Source: Ignavibacteriota bacterium | Lineage (GTDB): Bacteria > Bacteroidota > Ignavibacteria > SZUA-365 | Length of the DNA: 64,000 nt | Reading direction: 5' to 3' | NCBI GenBank assembly: GCA_016218045.1 | Contig: JACRFB010000031.1 | Location: 72,908 to 136,907 of the forward strand | Program-made: the position numbers and the translations under genes | The notes under the pieces: generated by a model | What the model saw: only the letters and a program-made list of their open reading frames with translations | Database searches by the model: none | Told to the model about the DNA's origin: nothing | Part shown: positions 32,874 to 63,647 of the stretch, piece by piece | Layout of the letters: each line of letters opens with the position of its first letter | How positions within the stretch are numbered: the stretch's first letter is position 1

Positions 32874-32985
32874 CGAGAAGGGGAAAGGGAGAATGGTGAA
32901 GGGGGATGGGGGGAGGGGGATGGGGGAAGAGGGTAGAGGGAAGGGGGAAGGGAAAGAGGGTAATAGAGCTAGCCATGTGATGGGG
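32874..32985. repeat. Polypurine G-run-rich tract (potential G-quadruplex-forming) in the divergent rlmN / DUF2279 promoter region
   Basis: + strand reads gaaggggaaagggagaatggtgaagggggatggggggagggggatgggggaagagggtagagggaagggggaagggaaagaggg...tgatgggggaaaag, i.e. more than 10 runs of G3-6 with almost no pyrimidines. Confidence 0.8.
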
Positions 32986-41306: not shown

Positions 41307-41659
41307 GATATCCTCCTCGGCAGCAAAACGTGAACTTGTTGGGTGAATCACTGCATCGTACGCGGGCCTGTTGCCCGATGTTGCGGCGGCTTTAGGTCAC
41401 AAATTCGTCCCTGTGTTTTTTGATCTGTTAACATCAATACCGGTCGTGTCTCCTGTCTTCTCATGCTCGTGTTAGGATTCAGGAGGAAGGAGACAGGAGA
41501 CAGGAGGCACGGATCTGCCAGTACGTGATATTGATTGCGCATTCGAAAATCCCTATGTTTCATATCTTATTCCGCGCTTGTGTGCCGCCCGCAGAGTGCG
41601 GCGGAGACAACGCGAAGGTGTCAAGAAATGCAGCGCGCAGGCGCGACCCGTCCCCCGCA

Positions 41660-57981: not shown

Positions 57982-58228
57982 TAAGTAGATGGTAGATGAG
58001 TAGATGGTAGATAGTAGACACCAAGCGTTACATTCCTCCAGATAGTTATTTCGGTCCCCAGTCCCCAGTCCCTCGTCCCCAGTCCCCAGTCCCTCGTCCC
58101 CAGTCCCCAGTCCCTCGTCCCCAGTCCCCAGTCCCTCGTCCCCAGTCCCTCGTCCCTCGTCCCCAGTCTCCAATCCCAACTCCCGATTCCTAACTCCTAA
58201 ATCCTAATTCCCAACTCCTCACTCCACC
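57982..58228. repeat. Heptanucleotide tandem-repeat array: 5 x GTAGATG-like, then ~17 x TCCCCAG/TCCCTCG (perfect 21-nt super-unit x4), decaying into ~9 degenerate TCCYNNN units that end at the start codon of the downstream gene
   Basis: Directly visible as taaGTAGATGGTAGATGAGTAGATGGTAGATAGTAGAC ... tccccagtccccagtccctcg x4 ... tctccaatcccaactcccgattcctaactcctaaatcctaattcccaactcctcactccacc ATG. The minus strand reads (CTGGGGA)n. Confidence 0.9.
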
Positions 58229-59959
58229 ATGCGACCGCCGCTTCATGCCTTGCAGATTCCCGATGCGGAATTCGTCGTATGCGACGTTGAGACGACGGGC
58301 TTGAGTCCGGACCACAACAGGATGACGGAAATCGCGCTCGTCCGTGTGGCGGAGGGACGGGTGGTGGAGAAGTACCAGACGCTGATCAATCCCAGGCAGT
58401 TCATTCCACCGTTCATCACGGAACTGACGGGCATTACCAACGAGATGGTCTACTCCGCTCCCGATGCGGACGAGGTGCTGCCGGCCATACGCGCATTCAT
58501 CGGCGACGCAGTCTTTGTCGGACACAATGCGCGTTTCGACTTTTCCTTCGTCGACGCCGCGCTGCGGCGCGCGGGGCTCGCGCCTTTGGAGAACGCGGTG
58601 TTGTGCACGGCGCGCCTCGCGCGGCGCCTCGTTCCCGCGCTGGCGAAGAAGAATCTCGGCTCCATCGCGCGCCATCTCGGCATCAGCAATCCCCGCGCGC
58701 ACCGCGCCTCGGGTGACGCGGAAACGACCGCCCGCATCCTGCTGCACTTCGCCGGCATGGTGTCGGAGGAACACGACGTGGCTGATCTGGGCGACCTGCT
58801 CTCGTTCCAGAACAAACCGGTGTATCGGGTCACCACACCGCCGAAAAACTTCCTGAAACTGCAGCCGGCCCTGGCGGCCCTGCCGCATGAACCCGGCATC
58901 TATTTCTTCCACGACGCGCGCGGTCACATCATCTACATCGGCAAGGCGCGGGATCTGTCGGACCGCGTGCACTCGTATTTCCGCTATAATGTCGGGCACA
59001 GCGAAAAGGTCCTCAAACTCGCGCGCGCGGTGGCGTCCATCACCTGGAAAACCACCGACACCGAACTGTCGGCGCTGCTCGCCGAGGCGCGGGCCATACG
59101 CCAGCATCAGCCGCGCTTCAACGCGCTGCTTAAAAGTGCGCGCGCGTATCCGTTCATCCGCATCGATTGCGCCGACACGTTCCCGACGATCTCCTGGACC
59201 TACGACATGGAGGACGACGGCGCCGACTATTACGGACCCTTCAGCTCGCGCTTCGCCGTCGAACGCGCACTCGAGGTGATCGATCGCATCTTCCTCATTC
59301 GCGAATGCGACGGACGCATCACGCCCCGCGATACCGCAACCCCGTGCCTGTACTACGACATCAAACGCTGCGGCGCGCCCTGCGCTTCACTGCAGTCTGC
59401 CGAGGAGTACGCCGAGGAGGTGCAGCGCGTGCGACAGTTCCTCCGCGGTCGGCACGACTCGGTGCTCAACGGGTTGCGGGCGGCGATGGAGTCGCGTGCC
59501 GAGGCGCTCGACTTCGAAGGAGCGGCGTCGGTGCGCGACCGTCTGCGCGATCTCGAACGTATCGTGCGGCAGCAGCGTGTCATGGCGCGCTCGGTCCGTT
59601 ATCAGAATCTGGTGATCGTCACTCTCGCACGTCGCACCTTCGTGGAGGTGCACTGCATGAAATCCGGCATGCTCGTGGCGCAGGAACTGCTGGATCAGCG
59701 CGCGTGCACGCGGCAGAATGTGCGCACGTTGCTGTCGGAGTCCTTCTTCAGCGGCCAGAACGAACTGTTCCTCGGCGGGAAGGAAGACATCGCGGAGATG
59801 CGCATCATCGCCTCATGGTGCCTCACGCGGCGTGATGAGTCCGTCGTGATCGAGGCCGACGATCATCAGACACGCGATGCGCTGATCGACGCGGTGTACG
59901 CGGCGGTGCGCGGGCTGGGCAGGGACGAGGCGCCGGCACGCTTCGCGGAAAGGGCGTAA
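58229..59959 (+). CDS. DnaQ-type 3'-5' exonuclease fused to a GIY-YIG/UvrC-N-terminal-like nuclease (Cho-like excinuclease fusion)
   Basis: N-terminal DEDD exonuclease motifs (FVVCDVETTGL; ..FVGHNARFDFSFV..; ..HRASGDAETTARIL). Middle GIY-YIG (PGIYFFHDARGHIIYIGKARDLSDRVHSYF...ELSALLAEARAIRQHQPRFN). UvrC-like Cys region (YYDIKRCGAPC). This architecture resembles mycobacterial Cho-like proteins. Confidence 0.7.
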   Translation: MRPPLHALQIPDAEFVVCDVETTGLSPDHNRMTEIALVRVAEGRVVEKYQTLINPRQFIPPFITELTGITNEMVYSAPDADEVLPAIRAFIGDAVFVGHNARFDFSFVDAALRRAGLAPLENAVLCTARLARRLVPALAKKNLGSIARHLGISNPRAHRASGDAETTARILLHFAGMVSEEHDVADLGDLLSFQNKPVYRVTTPPKNFLKLQPALAALPHEPGIYFFHDARGHIIYIGKARDLSDRVHSYFRYNVGHSEKVLKLARAVASITWKTTDTELSALLAEARAIRQHQPRFNALLKSARAYPFIRIDCADTFPTISWTYDMEDDGADYYGPFSSRFAVERALEVIDRIFLIRECDGRITPRDTATPCLYYDIKRCGAPCASLQSAEEYAEEVQRVRQFLRGRHDSVLNGLRAAMESRAEALDFEGAASVRDRLRDLERIVRQQRVMARSVRYQNLVIVTLARRTFVEVHCMKSGMLVAQELLDQRACTRQNVRTLLSESFFSGQNELFLGGKEDIAEMRIIASWCLTRRDESVVIEADDHQTRDALIDAVYAAVRGLGRDEAPARFAERA

Positions 59960-59976
59960 TATCGTCCGAAAAAAAA

Positions 59977-59995
59977 GGCCGGGGAAAACCCGGCC
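59977..59995 (-). terminator. Intrinsic terminator candidate (serves the minus-strand gene ending at 60022; hairpin is shared with the convergent + gene)
   Basis: aaaaaaaa-ggccggg-gaaaa-cccggcc. On the minus strand the stem is followed by a U8 tract. Confidence 0.65.
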
Positions 59996-60021
59996 TCCGT
60001 GCTCGTAGTACGGCAGGTGTG

Positions 60022-61656
60022 TCAGAACGGGCGCGAGAAGCGCAGCACAAAACGTGCATCCTCTGAGAAGGCCGTCTTGACCATCGGCCACGCGACACCG
60101 ATGCGGAAATTGCCGTCGGCATTGCCGATCGCGACGCCGAAGTCGCTCTTCCACTGGCGGCTCAGGAACGTGTCGCTGAAGGATGCGTCGAGCAGTCCCG
60201 TGCGGAAATCCGCCGCGCCCGACACCAGGGCCGCGTCGCTGACCACGCCCGCGTCCGCAAAGAGAATGAGGTTGATGCTCGTCACGGCACGCGCAACCCA
60301 ATCGCTCGATTCCTCGAACAGGGTGTTGCGGAAGATGAGCTCGGCATTGACGATCGCCGCATTGGTGCCGCCGAATTCCTTGAAACGATATCCGGGAAGC
60401 GTCCCGAGGCCGCCAAGTTCCACGGCTCTCTGCACGGGCACATCGCCGTCGCTCAACACGATGCGGCCGCGTACGTTCAGATTCAGAAAATCGCGCAGCG
60501 GCTGATAGCGGCGCACGTCGATTGTCACCTGCGTAAATTCGTAATCGCCCTTTGTCGCGCCGCCCGCCATCTCGTACGCCGCCGTGGCCGTCCAGCCGTG
60601 CGCCGACGAGGAGGTGGGTGTGGTGGTGCTCGCCGAGACGTTGAAGATCAGCGAGTTGATATTACCCCTGTTTATCCACGGCTGCGGACGGAACACTTTG
60701 TCGCCGCCGAACAGCGACCAGTTGGTGTACCGGCGGAGGTTGTCGTAAGTGTCGTGCAGGTAGGCCGCCGATGCGCGGAGATTCAGACTCTCGGGTCCTT
60801 TATATGCCCATGACGCCGAGACCGAGAAGCCCTCGCGGTTGAAATAGTCCATAAAATCCTCGCGCGCGAAAAACGCCATGCCGGTGTTCTCCTCCAGATC
60901 CACCGCCCACTGATCCTTCGAATCGGTCACCGAATGGCCTTCGCCGCCGAAGTCCACGATCATGTTGTCGAAGTAGAACGGGAGATAGAGTCCGAGCGAA
61001 TACCGCCAGCGGTGATTCGCGAAGCCGTAGCCCAGCGAGCCTGAACCGACCAGATGCGGCTGGCTGTGCCAGTACAGGCGCTTGGGTTTCGCGAGCCCGA
61101 TGTATACTCCATCGACGCGATTATAGCGGAAGATGGTCTCTGCGAAGCCCGTGGCGAGCGGGAAGGGAATGGTGAAGGCGCCCGGGATCTTGCGGTACAG
61201 GTCGGGTTTGAACGAGAACTGGTCCTCGTCGTCATCGACGTTTCCGTCGGCGAGCGTCCAGTCTTCACCGAACTCGAAATCGCCTTCATCCCACATTTCC
61301 TCGTCCTCCGCGTCGTCGAGTTCGGCGACGGTGTCGCCCGCGTCGATGCGCGCCTGGAGTTTGGCCAGTTTCTTCTCGAGCGATTTCACGCGGCGTTCCG
61401 TATCGGCGAGCCGTTCGCGGGCCTCGTCATTGTCACCGCTTTCCAACTGACGTTTGATGTCGGACAACTGCTGTGTGAGTGTCTGCAGCTCGGCGCTGAG
61501 CCGCTGCTGCTCGGCCTTCAGGTCGACGGTTTTTTTCACGGAGTCCGATGCAGCGACCGGAGCCTCGCCCTGCGCCGCGTGTACGGGCGCCGCCGTCGCG
61601 GCGGCAGCCGCGAAGGACAGGAAGAGGAGAGACAGTGCGATGGAGCGGAGTGTCAT
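60022..61656 (-). CDS. Hypothetical outer-membrane protein: signal peptide, coiled-coil + acidic segment, C-terminal beta-barrel-like domain (Omp85/BamA-like?)
   Basis: MTLRSIALSLLFLSFAAAAATAAPVHA. Heptad-rich region (..LQTLTQQLSDIKRQLES..LEKKLAKLQARID). D/E-rich linker. The remainder is aromatic-rich and ends ..RFSRPF (terminal Phe). Confidence 0.5.
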   Translation of the reverse strand: MTLRSIALSLLFLSFAAAAATAAPVHAAQGEAPVAASDSVKKTVDLKAEQQRLSAELQTLTQQLSDIKRQLESGDNDEARERLADTERRVKSLEKKLAKLQARIDAGDTVAELDDAEDEEMWDEGDFEFGEDWTLADGNVDDDEDQFSFKPDLYRKIPGAFTIPFPLATGFAETIFRYNRVDGVYIGLAKPKRLYWHSQPHLVGSGSLGYGFANHRWRYSLGLYLPFYFDNMIVDFGGEGHSVTDSKDQWAVDLEENTGMAFFAREDFMDYFNREGFSVSASWAYKGPESLNLRASAAYLHDTYDNLRRYTNWSLFGGDKVFRPQPWINRGNINSLIFNVSASTTTPTSSSAHGWTATAAYEMAGGATKGDYEFTQVTIDVRRYQPLRDFLNLNVRGRIVLSDGDVPVQRAVELGGLGTLPGYRFKEFGGTNAAIVNAELIFRNTLFEESSDWVARAVTSINLILFADAGVVSDAALVSGAADFRTGLLDASFSDTFLSRQWKSDFGVAIGNADGNFRIGVAWPMVKTAFSEDARFVLRFSRPF

Positions 61657-61782: not shown

Positions 61783-62610
61783 CTAGTCCGGTATGTACTC
61801 GGTTTTCCTGGTCGTTGAAATGGCGATGTTCACCTTCATCGAACCACCGCCGACCTGCGAGATCGTCTGCTCGCCCTTTTCGGTCATGTTCAGTGTAATG
61901 AGGAGGCCCTCCGCCTGATCATACAGAAGCGAACCCTCGCCGTTCTCCTCGCCGGTCATGGCCAGGTCGTTATCGCCGCGAACCATGCGGCCTTCCGAGT
62001 TCTTGACGGTCTTCACGGCTATCTCGGTGCAGGAGCGGCCGTTGAGATCCTTCGTGCCCTTGTTCTCGAAGATCGACTTGCGCGTGAGCATCGTGGTGTT
62101 GTCGCCCTCGCCCAGGGTGTCGATCTTGTTGCGTTCCCAGGTTTTTTCGGACGCGAGTTTCTCGGCGTCGAGAGGCACCATGATGCCCATCATTTCGGCG
62201 ACGATCTGCGAACTGGGATCCTCGGGGAATTCCACGGTGGTGTCGCGGTCGAGCACCTTGCCATTGGATGCGATCGTGTATTTGAATTCGCGATCCTTGA
62301 GCGCCTCACCGAAGGTCTGTGTACCTTCCTGCGACTCCATGAGGAGCAGGCACGATTCGATTTTCATGGTGATGTCCATGTCGCCGTTCTCGCGCCTGGC
62401 TGTCATGGTGTACACCGCGCTCCCGGTACCCTCCATGCTCATGTTCATGGTGTTGCCCATCATCTCCTGAATCACGTCGCGCTTGTACTCGAGGAGGTAC
62501 TTGTAGGGTTTTCCCTGTTTGAATTTGTAAATGGCGTTCTGCGCGGACGCAAGAGGCGCGCAGGCAACGAGGGCCGCGAGCACGAGCATCGCGAGTGACG
62601 GGCGTTTCAT
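61783..62610 (-). CDS. Hypothetical secreted protein (paralog of 62629-63504)
   Basis: Signal peptide MKRPSLAMLVLAALVACAPLASAQ. Weak shared pattern with the upstream gene (Y(K/Q)xxxGxxxKY near the N-terminus, similar length). Confidence 0.45.
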   Translation of the reverse strand: MKRPSLAMLVLAALVACAPLASAQNAIYKFKQGKPYKYLLEYKRDVIQEMMGNTMNMSMEGTGSAVYTMTARRENGDMDITMKIESCLLLMESQEGTQTFGEALKDREFKYTIASNGKVLDRDTTVEFPEDPSSQIVAEMMGIMVPLDAEKLASEKTWERNKIDTLGEGDNTTMLTRKSIFENKGTKDLNGRSCTEIAVKTVKNSEGRMVRGDNDLAMTGEENGEGSLLYDQAEGLLITLNMTEKGEQTISQVGGGSMKVNIAISTTRKTEYIPD

Positions 62611-62628
62611 GAGTTCTCCGGTGATTGG

Positions 62629-63504
62629 TTAAGAAGGTAGATAGATCAGTGTCGTTTCTGTGGTGGACGAGGAGGGCAGCACTTCGGATTCCTGTTCGAA
62701 CACGGCCACGGTCGACTGTTTGCGCGTGCGCAGTGTAAACCGGACGGGCAGTCCGTCGGAAACACGGACGTACAGAGTGCCGTCGACGGTGGTTTCGTCT
62801 TCGGTGAACCGCTCGCTCGACGAGAACAGCGCCTTGCCTTCCGCGCTGACAGTGCCGCTCCATGTAAGTTTTATACATTCGCGGCCATGCAGCTTTACCA
62901 GAGAATCCACGTGGTAGTTCGTCTGGGCCTGCGTGTAGCGGAGCCCCGTTCCTTCGCCAAGTGTCGGATCTTTGTACCGTGGCCGGGCAGTGTCGCTGAC
63001 TGAATCGGTCCATGTATCGCCGACAGACAACGTCCGTGCCGGCAGGGAGGGGAATACCATGGCGCGACGGGCGAACGTGCCCGGATTCACCGGGATAGGG
63101 GATCCCTGCACCTCGAGCGGGGCAAGCGGTTCGGCGCGCAACAGGGCACCCTTCCGGCTCAGGGTCAAACGCACAGGACGACGCGTCAATACGTTGTCGA
63201 AGTCCACTCCGGGGGACTGACTCACCGCGCGGTCGGTCACGAGCGCAGTATCCTGCACTACAGTAAGAACCAGTTGTTCCGGCGAGGATTTCTCGACGCG
63301 AATGGTCAGGAACGACTCGACGGATTTGTTCATCTCCGTCAGGAGCCCTTTCATCGTGTGGGCCATGCCGGTTGTATTCTCCAGCCTCTTGTACTTGATC
63401 GTCGTTCCTTCGGCGAGTTGATATGTCAGCTCGCGTTTCTGCGCGACGGCGCCGAGTGTCAGGACGGCGCACATGAGGAGGAGAGGGGTGACACGAATGG
63501 ACAT
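62629..63504 (-). CDS. Hypothetical secreted protein (paralog of 61783-62610)
   Basis: Start re-called at MSIRVTPLLLMCAVLTLGAVAQ (signal peptide). No recognisable family. Confidence 0.4.
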   Translation of the reverse strand: MSIRVTPLLLMCAVLTLGAVAQKRELTYQLAEGTTIKYKRLENTTGMAHTMKGLLTEMNKSVESFLTIRVEKSSPEQLVLTVVQDTALVTDRAVSQSPGVDFDNVLTRRPVRLTLSRKGALLRAEPLAPLEVQGSPIPVNPGTFARRAMVFPSLPARTLSVGDTWTDSVSDTARPRYKDPTLGEGTGLRYTQAQTNYHVDSLVKLHGRECIKLTWSGTVSAEGKALFSSSERFTEDETTVDGTLYVRVSDGLPVRFTLRTRKQSTVAVFEQESEVLPSSSTTETTLIYLPS

Positions 63505-63647
63505 ACAGGGACTCATACTATTTCGAATACAACCATGCAAGATACGAAAGAGCAGGGATTCCGGGAGGGGAAAAATAGGGACCAGTGTGCGGCAGCACTG
63601 GAGCGTGATGCCGCACCGTCCTAGGGGATATGCCTTCGCGCAACGCG

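Follow-up and report, generated by a model that had tools for sequence, protein, structure and literature searches.

The open reading frame at positions 58229 to 59959 (+ strand) of the analysed window, a continuous stretch of 64 kb of DNA, encodes a two-nuclease DNA-repair protein, in which a DEDDh exonuclease is joined to the front half of UvrC. The fusion is of an already known kind: its family is catalogued and the exact protein is annotated in public databases. The protein probably acts in nucleotide excision repair as an accessory nuclease of the "Cho-like+Exo" class, combining the DEDDh exonuclease with the whole UvrC N-terminal half. The gene is complete and was found exactly as originally predicted, as a single ORF with an ATG start and 576 codons followed by a stop. 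Orthologs align at the N-terminus of the protein, which supports the start codon. Using the curated NCBIfam equivalog model NF005906 (PRK07883.1-4, "DEDD exonuclease domain-containing protein", 563 positions, cutoff of 495 bits), the protein scored 567.7 bits (E=2e-170), with residues 8-565 covering profile positions 1-560. Score and end-to-end coverage thus make it a member of this family. For the sub-models PRK07883.1 -1, -2, -3 and -5 it stayed below the respective cutoffs and passed -4 only. An identical sequence (P0001) from an Ignavibacteriae MAG is already held by NCBI under the same name as NF005906. At a threshold of E<=1e-10 the search yielded more than 1,500 homologs, and Ignavibacteria, Kapaibacteria and Bacteroidota MAGs contributed many of these. 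Together with a published relative from Bacteroidetes (PMC8565304), these entries contradict the original statement that the fusion is not a standard annotation in Bacteroidota-like genomes.

For the assignment of domains and residues, a family alignment of 28 homologs at 37-70% identity and an AlphaFold2 model of the full protein (mean pLDDT 80) were employed. Both nuclease folds were recovered in the model, and the Pfam matches for RNase_T, GIY-YIG and UVR all exceeded their gathering cutoffs. The DEDDh 3'-5' exonuclease occupies residues 16-171 (58274..58741; Pfam RNase_T, E=2e-36). Its catalytic pentad, consisting of D19-x-E21 (Exo I), D104 (Exo II) and H158-x4-D163 (Exo III), was invariant in the alignment and the active site is intact. 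The predicted relationship to the epsilon family was borne out. The domain aligns to the exonuclease of T. maritima PolC (2p1j, E=2e-30) with conservation of the catalytic motifs, its modelled structure reached Foldseek TM values of 0.77-0.80 against epsilon/DnaQ structures, and the exonuclease-domain model TIGR00573 matches the protein. The closest solved relatives are the PolC exonuclease domain and the N-terminal DEDDh domain of S. aureus DinG (PDB 8zef), with E-values of 1.6e-19 to 2e-30. As in the protein described here, a 3'-5' exonuclease is tethered to a DNA-processing module in DinG and PolC; however, their exonuclease is joined to a helicase or a polymerase and not to a UvrC-type endonuclease.

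The exonuclease is followed by a linker region (residues 182-210, 58772..58858) with a conserved F-Q194 motif, of which Q194 is invariant. In the subfamily the spacer between the H-x4-D of Exo III and the PG-x-Y of the GIY-YIG domain measures 58 residues and contains this FQ motif. It was present in all Ignavibacteria/Kapaibacteria-type loci except one (L017, 56 aa, "YQ"), while the versions from Chloroflexota and Actinomycetota do not carry it. A clamp-binding motif in the linker was considered; FQ is subfamily-specific and lies off the usual consensus, and we make no such claim.

The GIY-YIG endonuclease (residues 211-307, 58859..59149) was matched by Pfam at residues 222-296 with 25.4 bits (cutoff 22.6). 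It contains Y225, Y236, K239, R246, Y250, E279 and N298, with Y225, Y236, R246, E279 and N298 being invariant in the 28 sequences. The domain was aligned to the UvrC N-domains 1yd6 (E=4e-17) and 1ycz, where the catalytic residues of the B. caldotenax and T. maritima enzymes were matched. Foldseek comparison of the modelled domain with 1yd6 gave TM values of 0.91-0.95 at an rmsd of 1-2 A. The predicted UvrC-N-like GIY-YIG core was thus supported by profile, residues and fold.

A UvrC_M-type region (residues 308-408, 59150..59452) comes next, with a three-stranded beta motif (strands 309-312, 321-324 and 333-335 in the AlphaFold2 model), a helix (341-354), a Cys-rich motif and a second helix (391-405). 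The corresponding Pfam family PF27096 (UvrC_M) is precomputed on orthologs. The Cys cluster C360-X12-C373-X7-C381-X3-C385 (nucleotides 59306-59383) is invariant at all four positions among the 28 homologs, in agreement with the predicted UvrC-like cluster. These four cysteines are probable Fe-S ligands. The UvrC consensus was given as CX6-14CX3(H/Q)X3CX3C (PMC10085695), which C-X12-C-X3-D-X3-C-X3-C nearly fits; D377 stands in for H/Q, and family members carry D, E or Q here.

Behind the cysteines the original prediction needs one correction. The UvrC C-terminal endonuclease/HhH half is indeed absent; nevertheless, the protein does not end bare, as a UVR hairpin and an RNase H1-like domain of about 110 aa are retained. 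The UVR helical hairpin, a predicted UvrB-binding motif, spans residues 409-449 (59453..59575), with a Pfam match at residues 411-444 (27.3 bits, cutoff 21.5), modelled helices at 409-425 and 429-449, and F429, E430, A432 and R436 invariant in the 28 homologs. It is equivalent to helices alpha7-alpha8 of UvrC (PMC10085695). As the residues of the DEDDh and GIY-YIG sites, the Cys cluster and the UVR motif were invariant, both active sites and the UvrB-binding motif appear to be under purifying selection. The C-terminal domain (residues 455-566, 59591..59926) is a homolog of UvrC's central "RNase H1" domain, which is inactive. It folds as beta-beta-beta-alpha-alpha-beta-alpha (pLDDT 82 when the domain was modelled alone). 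This homology rests on profile-profile comparison, in which hhalign gave 96.8% (E=2e-10) for the UvrC central region versus a probability of 0.2% for the active RNase H2 region. When the domain alone was compared with UvrC by BLASTP, no significant match emerged, and a PDB fold search likewise returned none (best E-value 0.29). With BLASTP, the whole UvrC-like part is colinear with residues 7-367 of canonical UvrC (E=1e-67, 34% identity), i.e., with the N-terminal half termed UvrC-N (Seck et al., 2023, PMC10085695). Canonical UvrC has an active RNase H2 5'-endonuclease and a (HhH)2 domain, whereas the protein ends at about UvrC residue 367, shows no Pfam matches for either, and possesses an N-terminal DEDDh exonuclease instead. 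A canonical UvrC identity was rejected, as the TIGR00194 (uvrC) score of 242.5 bits is below the cutoff of 285.45 and residues 214-491 covered only the N-terminal part of the profile (positions 4-275 of 574).

The described architecture is that of the "Cho-like+Exo" subfamily of UvrC-like GIY-YIG nucleases (Dunin-Horkawicz et al., 2006, PMC1564403), with M. tuberculosis Rv2191 and M. smegmatis Ms4259 as prototype and covered by NCBI PRK07883 and NCBIfam NF005903-NF005907. This class shows the same order of ExoIII/DnaQ, GIY-YIG, C4 and UvrB-binding domains, with neither EndoV/RNase H2 nor HhH. All of these features were found in the protein: the DEDDh pentad, the catalytic Tyr/Arg/Glu/Asn of GIY-YIG, the C4 motif, a UVR match predicting UvrB binding, and the absence of EndoV/RNase H2 and HhH. 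The proposed identity with the mycobacterial fusion was therefore confirmed at the level of domain order. In 2006 the class was called Actinobacteria-specific (PMC1564403). Chloroflexota and Actinomycetota carry members of the class as well, and the protein studied here differs from the 2006 class by its Ignavibacteria/Kapaibacteria-type lineage and its own 58-aa FQ linker. The original term "Cho-like" has to be qualified. [quoted passage not shown] However, according to the literature it has no exonuclease, no UvrBb/UVR, its own C-terminal domain and SOS induction, whereas the protein has a UVR domain and its gene no detectable SOS box. Retention of UVR places it in the Cho-like+Exo class and not with orthodox Cho.

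A related Exo-GIY-YIG protein was predicted as a member of the SOS regulon in Bacteroidetes in 2021 (PMC8565304). [quoted passage not shown] It comprises 448 aa without a Pfam UVR match and adjoins a HTH-S24 repressor and dinB, while the 576-aa protein carries UVR, lies in a pdxA-ftsE context and lacks the published operators. The predicted SOS regulation and the neighbourhood of L079 tie the fusion to DNA-damage responses.

We then considered the genomic context. The neighbours of the gene are found in conserved order, with gyrB and a histidine kinase (in the ortholog loci), a sigma-54 regulator, GWxTD, pdxA and ftsE, and Omp85 downstream. The gene follows pdxA-ftsE only in orthologs of at least 57% identity (L001-L003), and the synteny is lost in more distant family members. 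A functional coupling to ftsE/pdxA was not adopted in view of this confinement. Neither uvrA, uvrB, uvrC, lexA-like genes and dinB nor a paralogous UvrC or DnaQ were found within the 64-kb window, and no repair partner recurs beside distant family members, apart from the single cases L018 and L079. The context thus gives no independent support for a repair function. Seven published SOS motifs, among them those of E. coli, Gram-positives, alpha-proteobacteria and Bdellovibrio and both Bacteroidetes LexA operators, were searched upstream of the gene, the putative operon and the orthologs. None was found, which leaves the LexA/SOS-type operator considered in the original prediction without a candidate among known motifs, although these may not represent the operator of the host lineage. 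The gene appears to share its expression with the housekeeping genes pdxA-ftsE rather than to depend on an SOS promoter. The original prediction had further implied a link to the heptamer repeat array directly upstream. We rejected this array, which is G-rich on the template strand, as an operator or as part of the locus, as it varies between orthologs: the closest ortholog locus (L001) has a repeat-free upstream gap of 28 bp, and in L002 this place is taken by repeats of another heptamer unit. Similar repeat arrays were also observed at other places of the window and in further loci.

For the Cho-like+Exo protein we propose the following mode of action. UvrA and UvrB would find the lesion and form the UvrB-DNA pre-incision complex, to which the protein would be recruited by docking of its UVR hairpin on the C-terminal UVR domain of UvrB. 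The contact of the helical bundles of UvrB and UvrC was described as necessary for 3' incision (PMC10085695). [quoted passage not shown] As the 5'-incision domain is missing, the tethered exonuclease may take over at the new 3'-OH and degrade the damaged strand in 3'-5' direction past the lesion, leaving a primer end from which repair synthesis and ligation could proceed. Such a nick-then-resect model was proposed before for the mycobacterial and beta-proteobacterial fusions (PMC1564403; PMC1839093). As our literature searches revealed no biochemical study of any Exo-UvrC-N fusion, we infer every step, including UvrB dependence, the position of the incision and exonucleolytic lesion removal, from UvrC/Cho biochemistry and from the 2002 proposal for the mycobacterial fusion. 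Tentatively, and with somewhat less confidence than for the accessory role as such, we suggest a constitutive, UvrC-independent "nick-and-resect" branch of repair in this lineage, in which a single UvrB-directed 3' incision would be followed by 3'-5' removal of the lesion. The data are compatible with such a branch, where the cluster of Fe-S type might, together with the inactive RNase H1 platform, coordinate the hand-off between the two active sites.

Three other functions were weighed. In the first, which we regard as unlikely, the protein would be a self-sufficient, UvrB-recruited dual-incision excinuclease, whose GIY-YIG domain cuts on both sides of the lesion. The exonuclease would be limited to trimming or widening of the gap or to removal of 3'-blocked ends, and the protein would back up canonical UvrC instead of acting by nick and resection. 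The protein does possess the exact UvrC-N set of NEndo, beta motif, Cys-rich motif, four-helix bundle and RNase H1. The UvrC-N fragment of D. radiodurans, built alike but without an exonuclease, incised DNA on both the 3' and the 5' side in vitro by means of its GIY-YIG domain (PMC10085695). Accordingly, exonucleolytic removal of the lesion may be dispensable. However, the 5' incision of this UvrC-N was inefficient and D. radiodurans UvrC was called atypical by the authors (PMC10085695), E. coli Cho makes the 3' incision only (PMC1564403; PMC10085695), and the invariant DEDDh residues together with the fixed-length linker of the subfamily suggest that the exonuclease is integral and not accessory.

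Considerably less probable is an alternative DnaQ, i.e., a replication-linked exonuclease for proofreading or fork processing, for which the UvrC-like half would provide a module for binding of DNA or partners. In favour of this, JGI pipelines label homologs as "DNA polymerase III subunit epsilon", PolC and DinG have the most closely related exonuclease domains, and the family gene of L018 (Chloroflexia) has a dnaE-type polymerase gene and ligA as its neighbours. On the other hand, deletion of M. smegmatis Ms4259, alone or combined with a dnaQ deletion, caused no significant mutator phenotype in fluctuation assays, and Ms4259 was judged functionally different from DnaQ (PMC11348249), which argues against a role in proofreading. 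Membership in Pol III epsilon (DnaQ) was rejected on the same ground (PMC11348249), and as the protein is no stand-alone epsilon with an alpha-binding C-terminus. An epsilon-type C-terminal segment is missing, its place being taken by UvrC-N, and invariant GIY-YIG catalytic residues and a UVR motif would be unexpected in a mere binding module.

DEDDh domains are also known from CRISPR adaptation modules and candidate defence systems, and PADLOC matched residues 13-190 to PDC-S48 (E=6e-43) and to a Cas-associated DEDDh family (E=4.5e-40); nevertheless, an anti-phage or mobile-element nuclease effector is highly improbable and neither PADLOC family was assigned, as these matches are limited to the generic exonuclease domain while the rest is colinear with UvrC, the neighbours are housekeeping genes in conserved order, the gene shows no composition anomaly, and the loci examined showed no consistent co-localisation with defence genes.

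As a discovery the fusion carries little weight, since it has been discussed since 2002-2006, is covered by curated NCBIfam models, and this very protein already has an annotation. What keeps it of value is that no member of the family appears to have been characterised biochemically. The protein described here carries a complete UvrC-N module behind its exonuclease, including the inactive RNase H1 domain that was recognised only in 2023. Moreover, Ignavibacteria-type genomes contain a form with UVR, in addition to the SOS-linked form without UVR that Bacteroidales carry. Either form could serve to probe the single-incision-plus-resection model of alternative excision repair.

The ORF call reproduced exactly the 576-codon reading frame of the original prediction (58229-59959, + strand), in a region of ordinary base composition for a window of about 62% G+C. 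Its start codon is likely the ATG at 58229, since the N-terminus matches those of the orthologs residue for residue. Using the Pfam gathering cutoffs, an RNase_T domain (DEDD exonuclease, residues 16-171, E=2e-36), a GIY-YIG domain (residues 222-296, 25.4 bits versus a cutoff of 22.6) and a UVR domain (residues 411-444, 27.3 bits versus 21.5) were identified. The decisive profile evidence came from NCBIfam, where NF005906 (PRK07883.1-4), an equivalog named "DEDD exonuclease domain-containing protein", matched residues 8-565 of 576 with 567.7 bits (curated cutoff 495). TIGR00194, the model for canonical UvrC, matched only residues 214-491 (profile positions 4-275 of 574), below cutoff. Given these Pfam and NCBIfam results, the C-terminal half does contain a GIY-YIG domain, the DEDD motifs are not degenerate, and the predicted exonuclease/GIY-YIG fusion therefore stands.

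In an alignment of the window protein with 27 homologs (37-70% identity), the exonuclease pentad D19, E21, D104, H158 and D163 and the GIY-YIG residues Y225, Y236, G238, K239, R246, Y250, E279 and N298 were invariant, as were the cysteines C360, C373, C381 and C385 and the UVR-motif residues F429, E430, A432 and R436. Counterparts of the exonuclease motifs were found by alignment in PolC of T. maritima (exonuclease domain, 2p1j, E=2e-30), and those of the GIY-YIG motifs in two UvrC N-terminal domains, 1yd6 of B. caldotenax (E=4e-17) and 1ycz of T. maritima. The UvrC-like cysteine cluster proposed before was borne out by the spacing of the four invariant cysteines, C-X12-C-X3-D-X3-C-X3-C, a near fit to the UvrC Fe-S consensus CX6-14CX3(H/Q)X3CX3C (PMC10085695) with D, E or Q at the H/Q position in the fusion family. 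The spacer between exonuclease and GIY-YIG (58772-58858, residues 182-210) carries a conserved [LI]-x-F-Q motif, whose Q194 was invariant in the family alignment. From the ExoIII motif to the GIY-YIG motif, 58 residues were counted in all Ignavibacteria/Kapaibacteria-type loci examined except L017 (56 residues, YQ in place of FQ), whereas the Chloroflexota and Actinomycetota proteins have unrelated linkers of 50-64 residues. The motif occupies the place of the clamp-binding motif of E. coli epsilon, but does not fit that consensus.

An AlphaFold2 model computed from the family alignment (mean pLDDT 80.4, pTM 0.66) recovered both nuclease folds in Foldseek searches against the PDB: a DnaQ/epsilon fold (target-normalised TM 0.77-0.80; 8h2f, 2gui, 2ido) and a UvrC GIY-YIG fold (1yd6, TM 0.91-0.95, rmsd 1.0-2.1 A). 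The GIY-YIG domain is followed by a three-stranded beta motif, a helix, a Cys-rich loop, three helices and a terminal beta-beta-beta-alpha-alpha-beta-alpha domain, the same order as given for UvrC by Seck et al. The terminal domain (residues 454-576), modelled alone with a pLDDT of 82, had no significant PDB neighbour (best E-value 0.29), consistent with the remark that no experimental structure spans the corresponding part of UvrC (PMC10085695). By itself it gave no significant BLASTP match to a canonical UvrC. Its homology to UvrC was established by colinear alignment, residues 211-565 running parallel to residues 7-367 of a canonical UvrC of 617 aa encoded at locus L025 (34% identity, E=1e-67), and by profile-profile comparison with 20 canonical UvrC sequences from the genome scan. 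In the latter, the domain matched the UvrC central region (96.8% probability, E=2e-10, 99 columns) and not the active RNase H2 endonuclease region (0.2% probability). The protein is thus a DEDDh exonuclease followed by a complete "UvrC-N" half, the N-terminal half of canonical UvrC, and more than a GIY-YIG domain with a Cys cluster. RNase H2 and (HhH)2 domains were absent, in agreement with the predicted lack of the C-terminal UvrC half.

The structural interpretation was thus confirmed and the observation is real; the claim of an unusual, non-standard annotation did not hold in view of the curated model, a published architecture and an identical NCBI entry (P0001) that already bears the NF005906 name. 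The protein belongs to a catalogued family described in the literature: Dunin-Horkawicz et al. (2006) defined a "Cho-like+Exo" subfamily (ExoIII, GIY-YIG, C4, UvrBb) next to a "Cho+Exo" subfamily (PMC1564403), and Seck et al. describe corresponding Cho classes (PMC10085695). In Bacteroidetes, Sanchez-Osuna et al. (PMC8565304) list a related Exo-GIY-YIG protein among the predicted members of the SOS regulon. Among the candidates examined, 1,556 homologs reached E<=1e-10, many from Ignavibacteria, Kapaibacterium, Chlorobi-labelled and Bacteroidota MAGs. Scanning species-representative genomes, the full-length fusion was found in Ignavibacteria, Kapaibacteria, Actinomycetota and Chloroflexota, there in Ktedonobacteria (e.g., Tengunoibacter, Dictyobacter), Chloroflexia and Thermomicrobiales. 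No biochemical study of any exonuclease-UvrC-N fusion was found in the literature.

Upstream on the same strand lie genes for a sigma-54 response regulator, a GWxTD-domain protein, pdxA and an ftsE-type ABC ATPase; a convergent Omp85-family gene (60022-61656, - strand) follows downstream. This order was shared by three orthologous loci (L001, L002, L003; 57-70% identity), with gyrB and a histidine-kinase gene farther upstream in L001 and L002, and more distant members of the family lack it; it therefore reflects gene order at the level of the clade, not a linkage across the whole family. In L001 the gap to ftsE is just 28 bp, which points to transcription together with housekeeping genes. Searches with seven published SOS operator patterns, both Bacteroidetes ones among them, gave no match upstream of the fusion gene, upstream of its putative operon, or in the L001 and L002 loci, and the window encodes no LexA-like protein, DinB or canonical UvrC C-terminal half. 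Within the 62 bp between the fusion-gene stop codon and the Omp85-family gene, a strong GC-rich hairpin (59974-59998, 10 bp stem, T-run on the - strand) is probably the terminator of the latter and perhaps works in both directions. Beyond the Omp85-family gene, two neighbouring ORFs of 275 and 303 aa (61783-63540, - strand) start with signal-peptide-like sequences and match no NCBIfam model at E<=1e-5; similar unannotated genes (276/276/294 aa) follow Omp85 in L001.

Two further loci showed other settings. In a Bacteroidales MAG (L079, 772-4344), dinB, a repressor gene (HTH_3 plus Peptidase_S24) and a gene for a 448-aa Exo-GIY-YIG variant form a compact putative SOS cassette, the variant gene directly downstream of the repressor gene and dinB divergent beyond it. 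The variant had no Pfam UVR match, so that the UVR-containing window form is distinct from it; both are known kinds. A palindrome, TTGATTAAAATTTAATCAA, lies between dinB and the repressor gene; as the published Bacteroidetes operators were absent from the cassette, its operator may be a diverged one. In a Chloroflexia MAG (L018, 1053-7385), the fusion gene lies between a fragment of the NAD-dependent DNA ligase gene (ligA) and a dnaE-type Pol III alpha gene, an arrangement seen in no other locus examined.

The 247-bp spacer between ftsE and the fusion gene (57984-58225) is filled with three 7-bp-periodic tandem arrays: GTAGATG (4.7 copies, 57985-58018), GTCCCCA (17.7 copies with a 21-bp super-period, 58054-58177) and a TCCTAAC/CTCCCAA type (about 5 copies, 58172-58225). 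The unit CCCCAGT corresponds to the heptamer of the cyanobacterial STRR1 repeat. The original prediction had paired this array with the fusion gene. Because L001 has no repeats at the orthologous spot and L002 has GTGAAGA-type heptamers there, the array is not conserved together with the gene, and we treat it as lineage-typical intergenic filler unrelated to it. Heptamer arrays of other units occur at 32877-32952 and 41480-41506 of the window, in L002 (5900-5965, 12320-12354), in two further loci (L009 5513-5606, L053 1923-1955) and in L079 (742-769, 2963-2995), where AACTTTG x4.7 lies in the 84-bp gap preceding the Exo-GIY-YIG gene. Their units were GAAGGGG, CAGGAGA, GAAGAGT, CCCACTC, TTTCAAC, AATCCGC, CCAACTG and AACTTTG, and their hosts Ignavibacteria/Bacteroidota-type MAGs. 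With period 7 accounting for 13 TRF rows across 596 kb of sequence, heptanucleotide arrays may represent a lineage-wide repeat class. On the - strand, the template for the fusion gene, the GTCCCCA array presents 17 consecutive G3-4 tracts and forms a G-quadruplex-type motif of 109 nt (58056-58164). Only four such motifs were found in the 64-kb window, two of them heptamer arrays (the second at 32901-32960, + strand).

The fusion protein combines two intact nuclease active sites with a conserved, predicted Fe-S-type cluster, a conserved putative UvrB-binding motif and a UvrC-type platform domain, and has no 5'-incision domain. From UvrC and Cho biochemistry, we infer that the UVR hairpin would recruit it to the UvrB-DNA pre-incision complex, that GIY-YIG would make the 3' incision, which needs the UvrB-UvrC contact (PMC10085695), and that the tethered exonuclease would resect 3'-5' through the lesion. 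A proposal of 2002, cited by Dunin-Horkawicz et al., already had the exonuclease start at the nick left by GIY-YIG and degrade the damaged strand past the lesion (PMC1564403; also PMC1839093). As the main alternative, both incisions might come from the UvrC-N module itself, an activity that a UvrC-N fragment of D. radiodurans shows in vitro (PMC10085695). A role in replication or proofreading is a minor alternative: deleting Ms4259, the mycobacterial homolog, singly or together with dnaQ, caused neither a growth defect nor a significant mutator phenotype (PMC11348249), which argues against proofreading. An anti-phage role is likewise minor, as the PADLOC matches were limited to the exonuclease domain. 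The proposed nick-and-resect pathway is the sole reading that would make the fusion protein more interesting.
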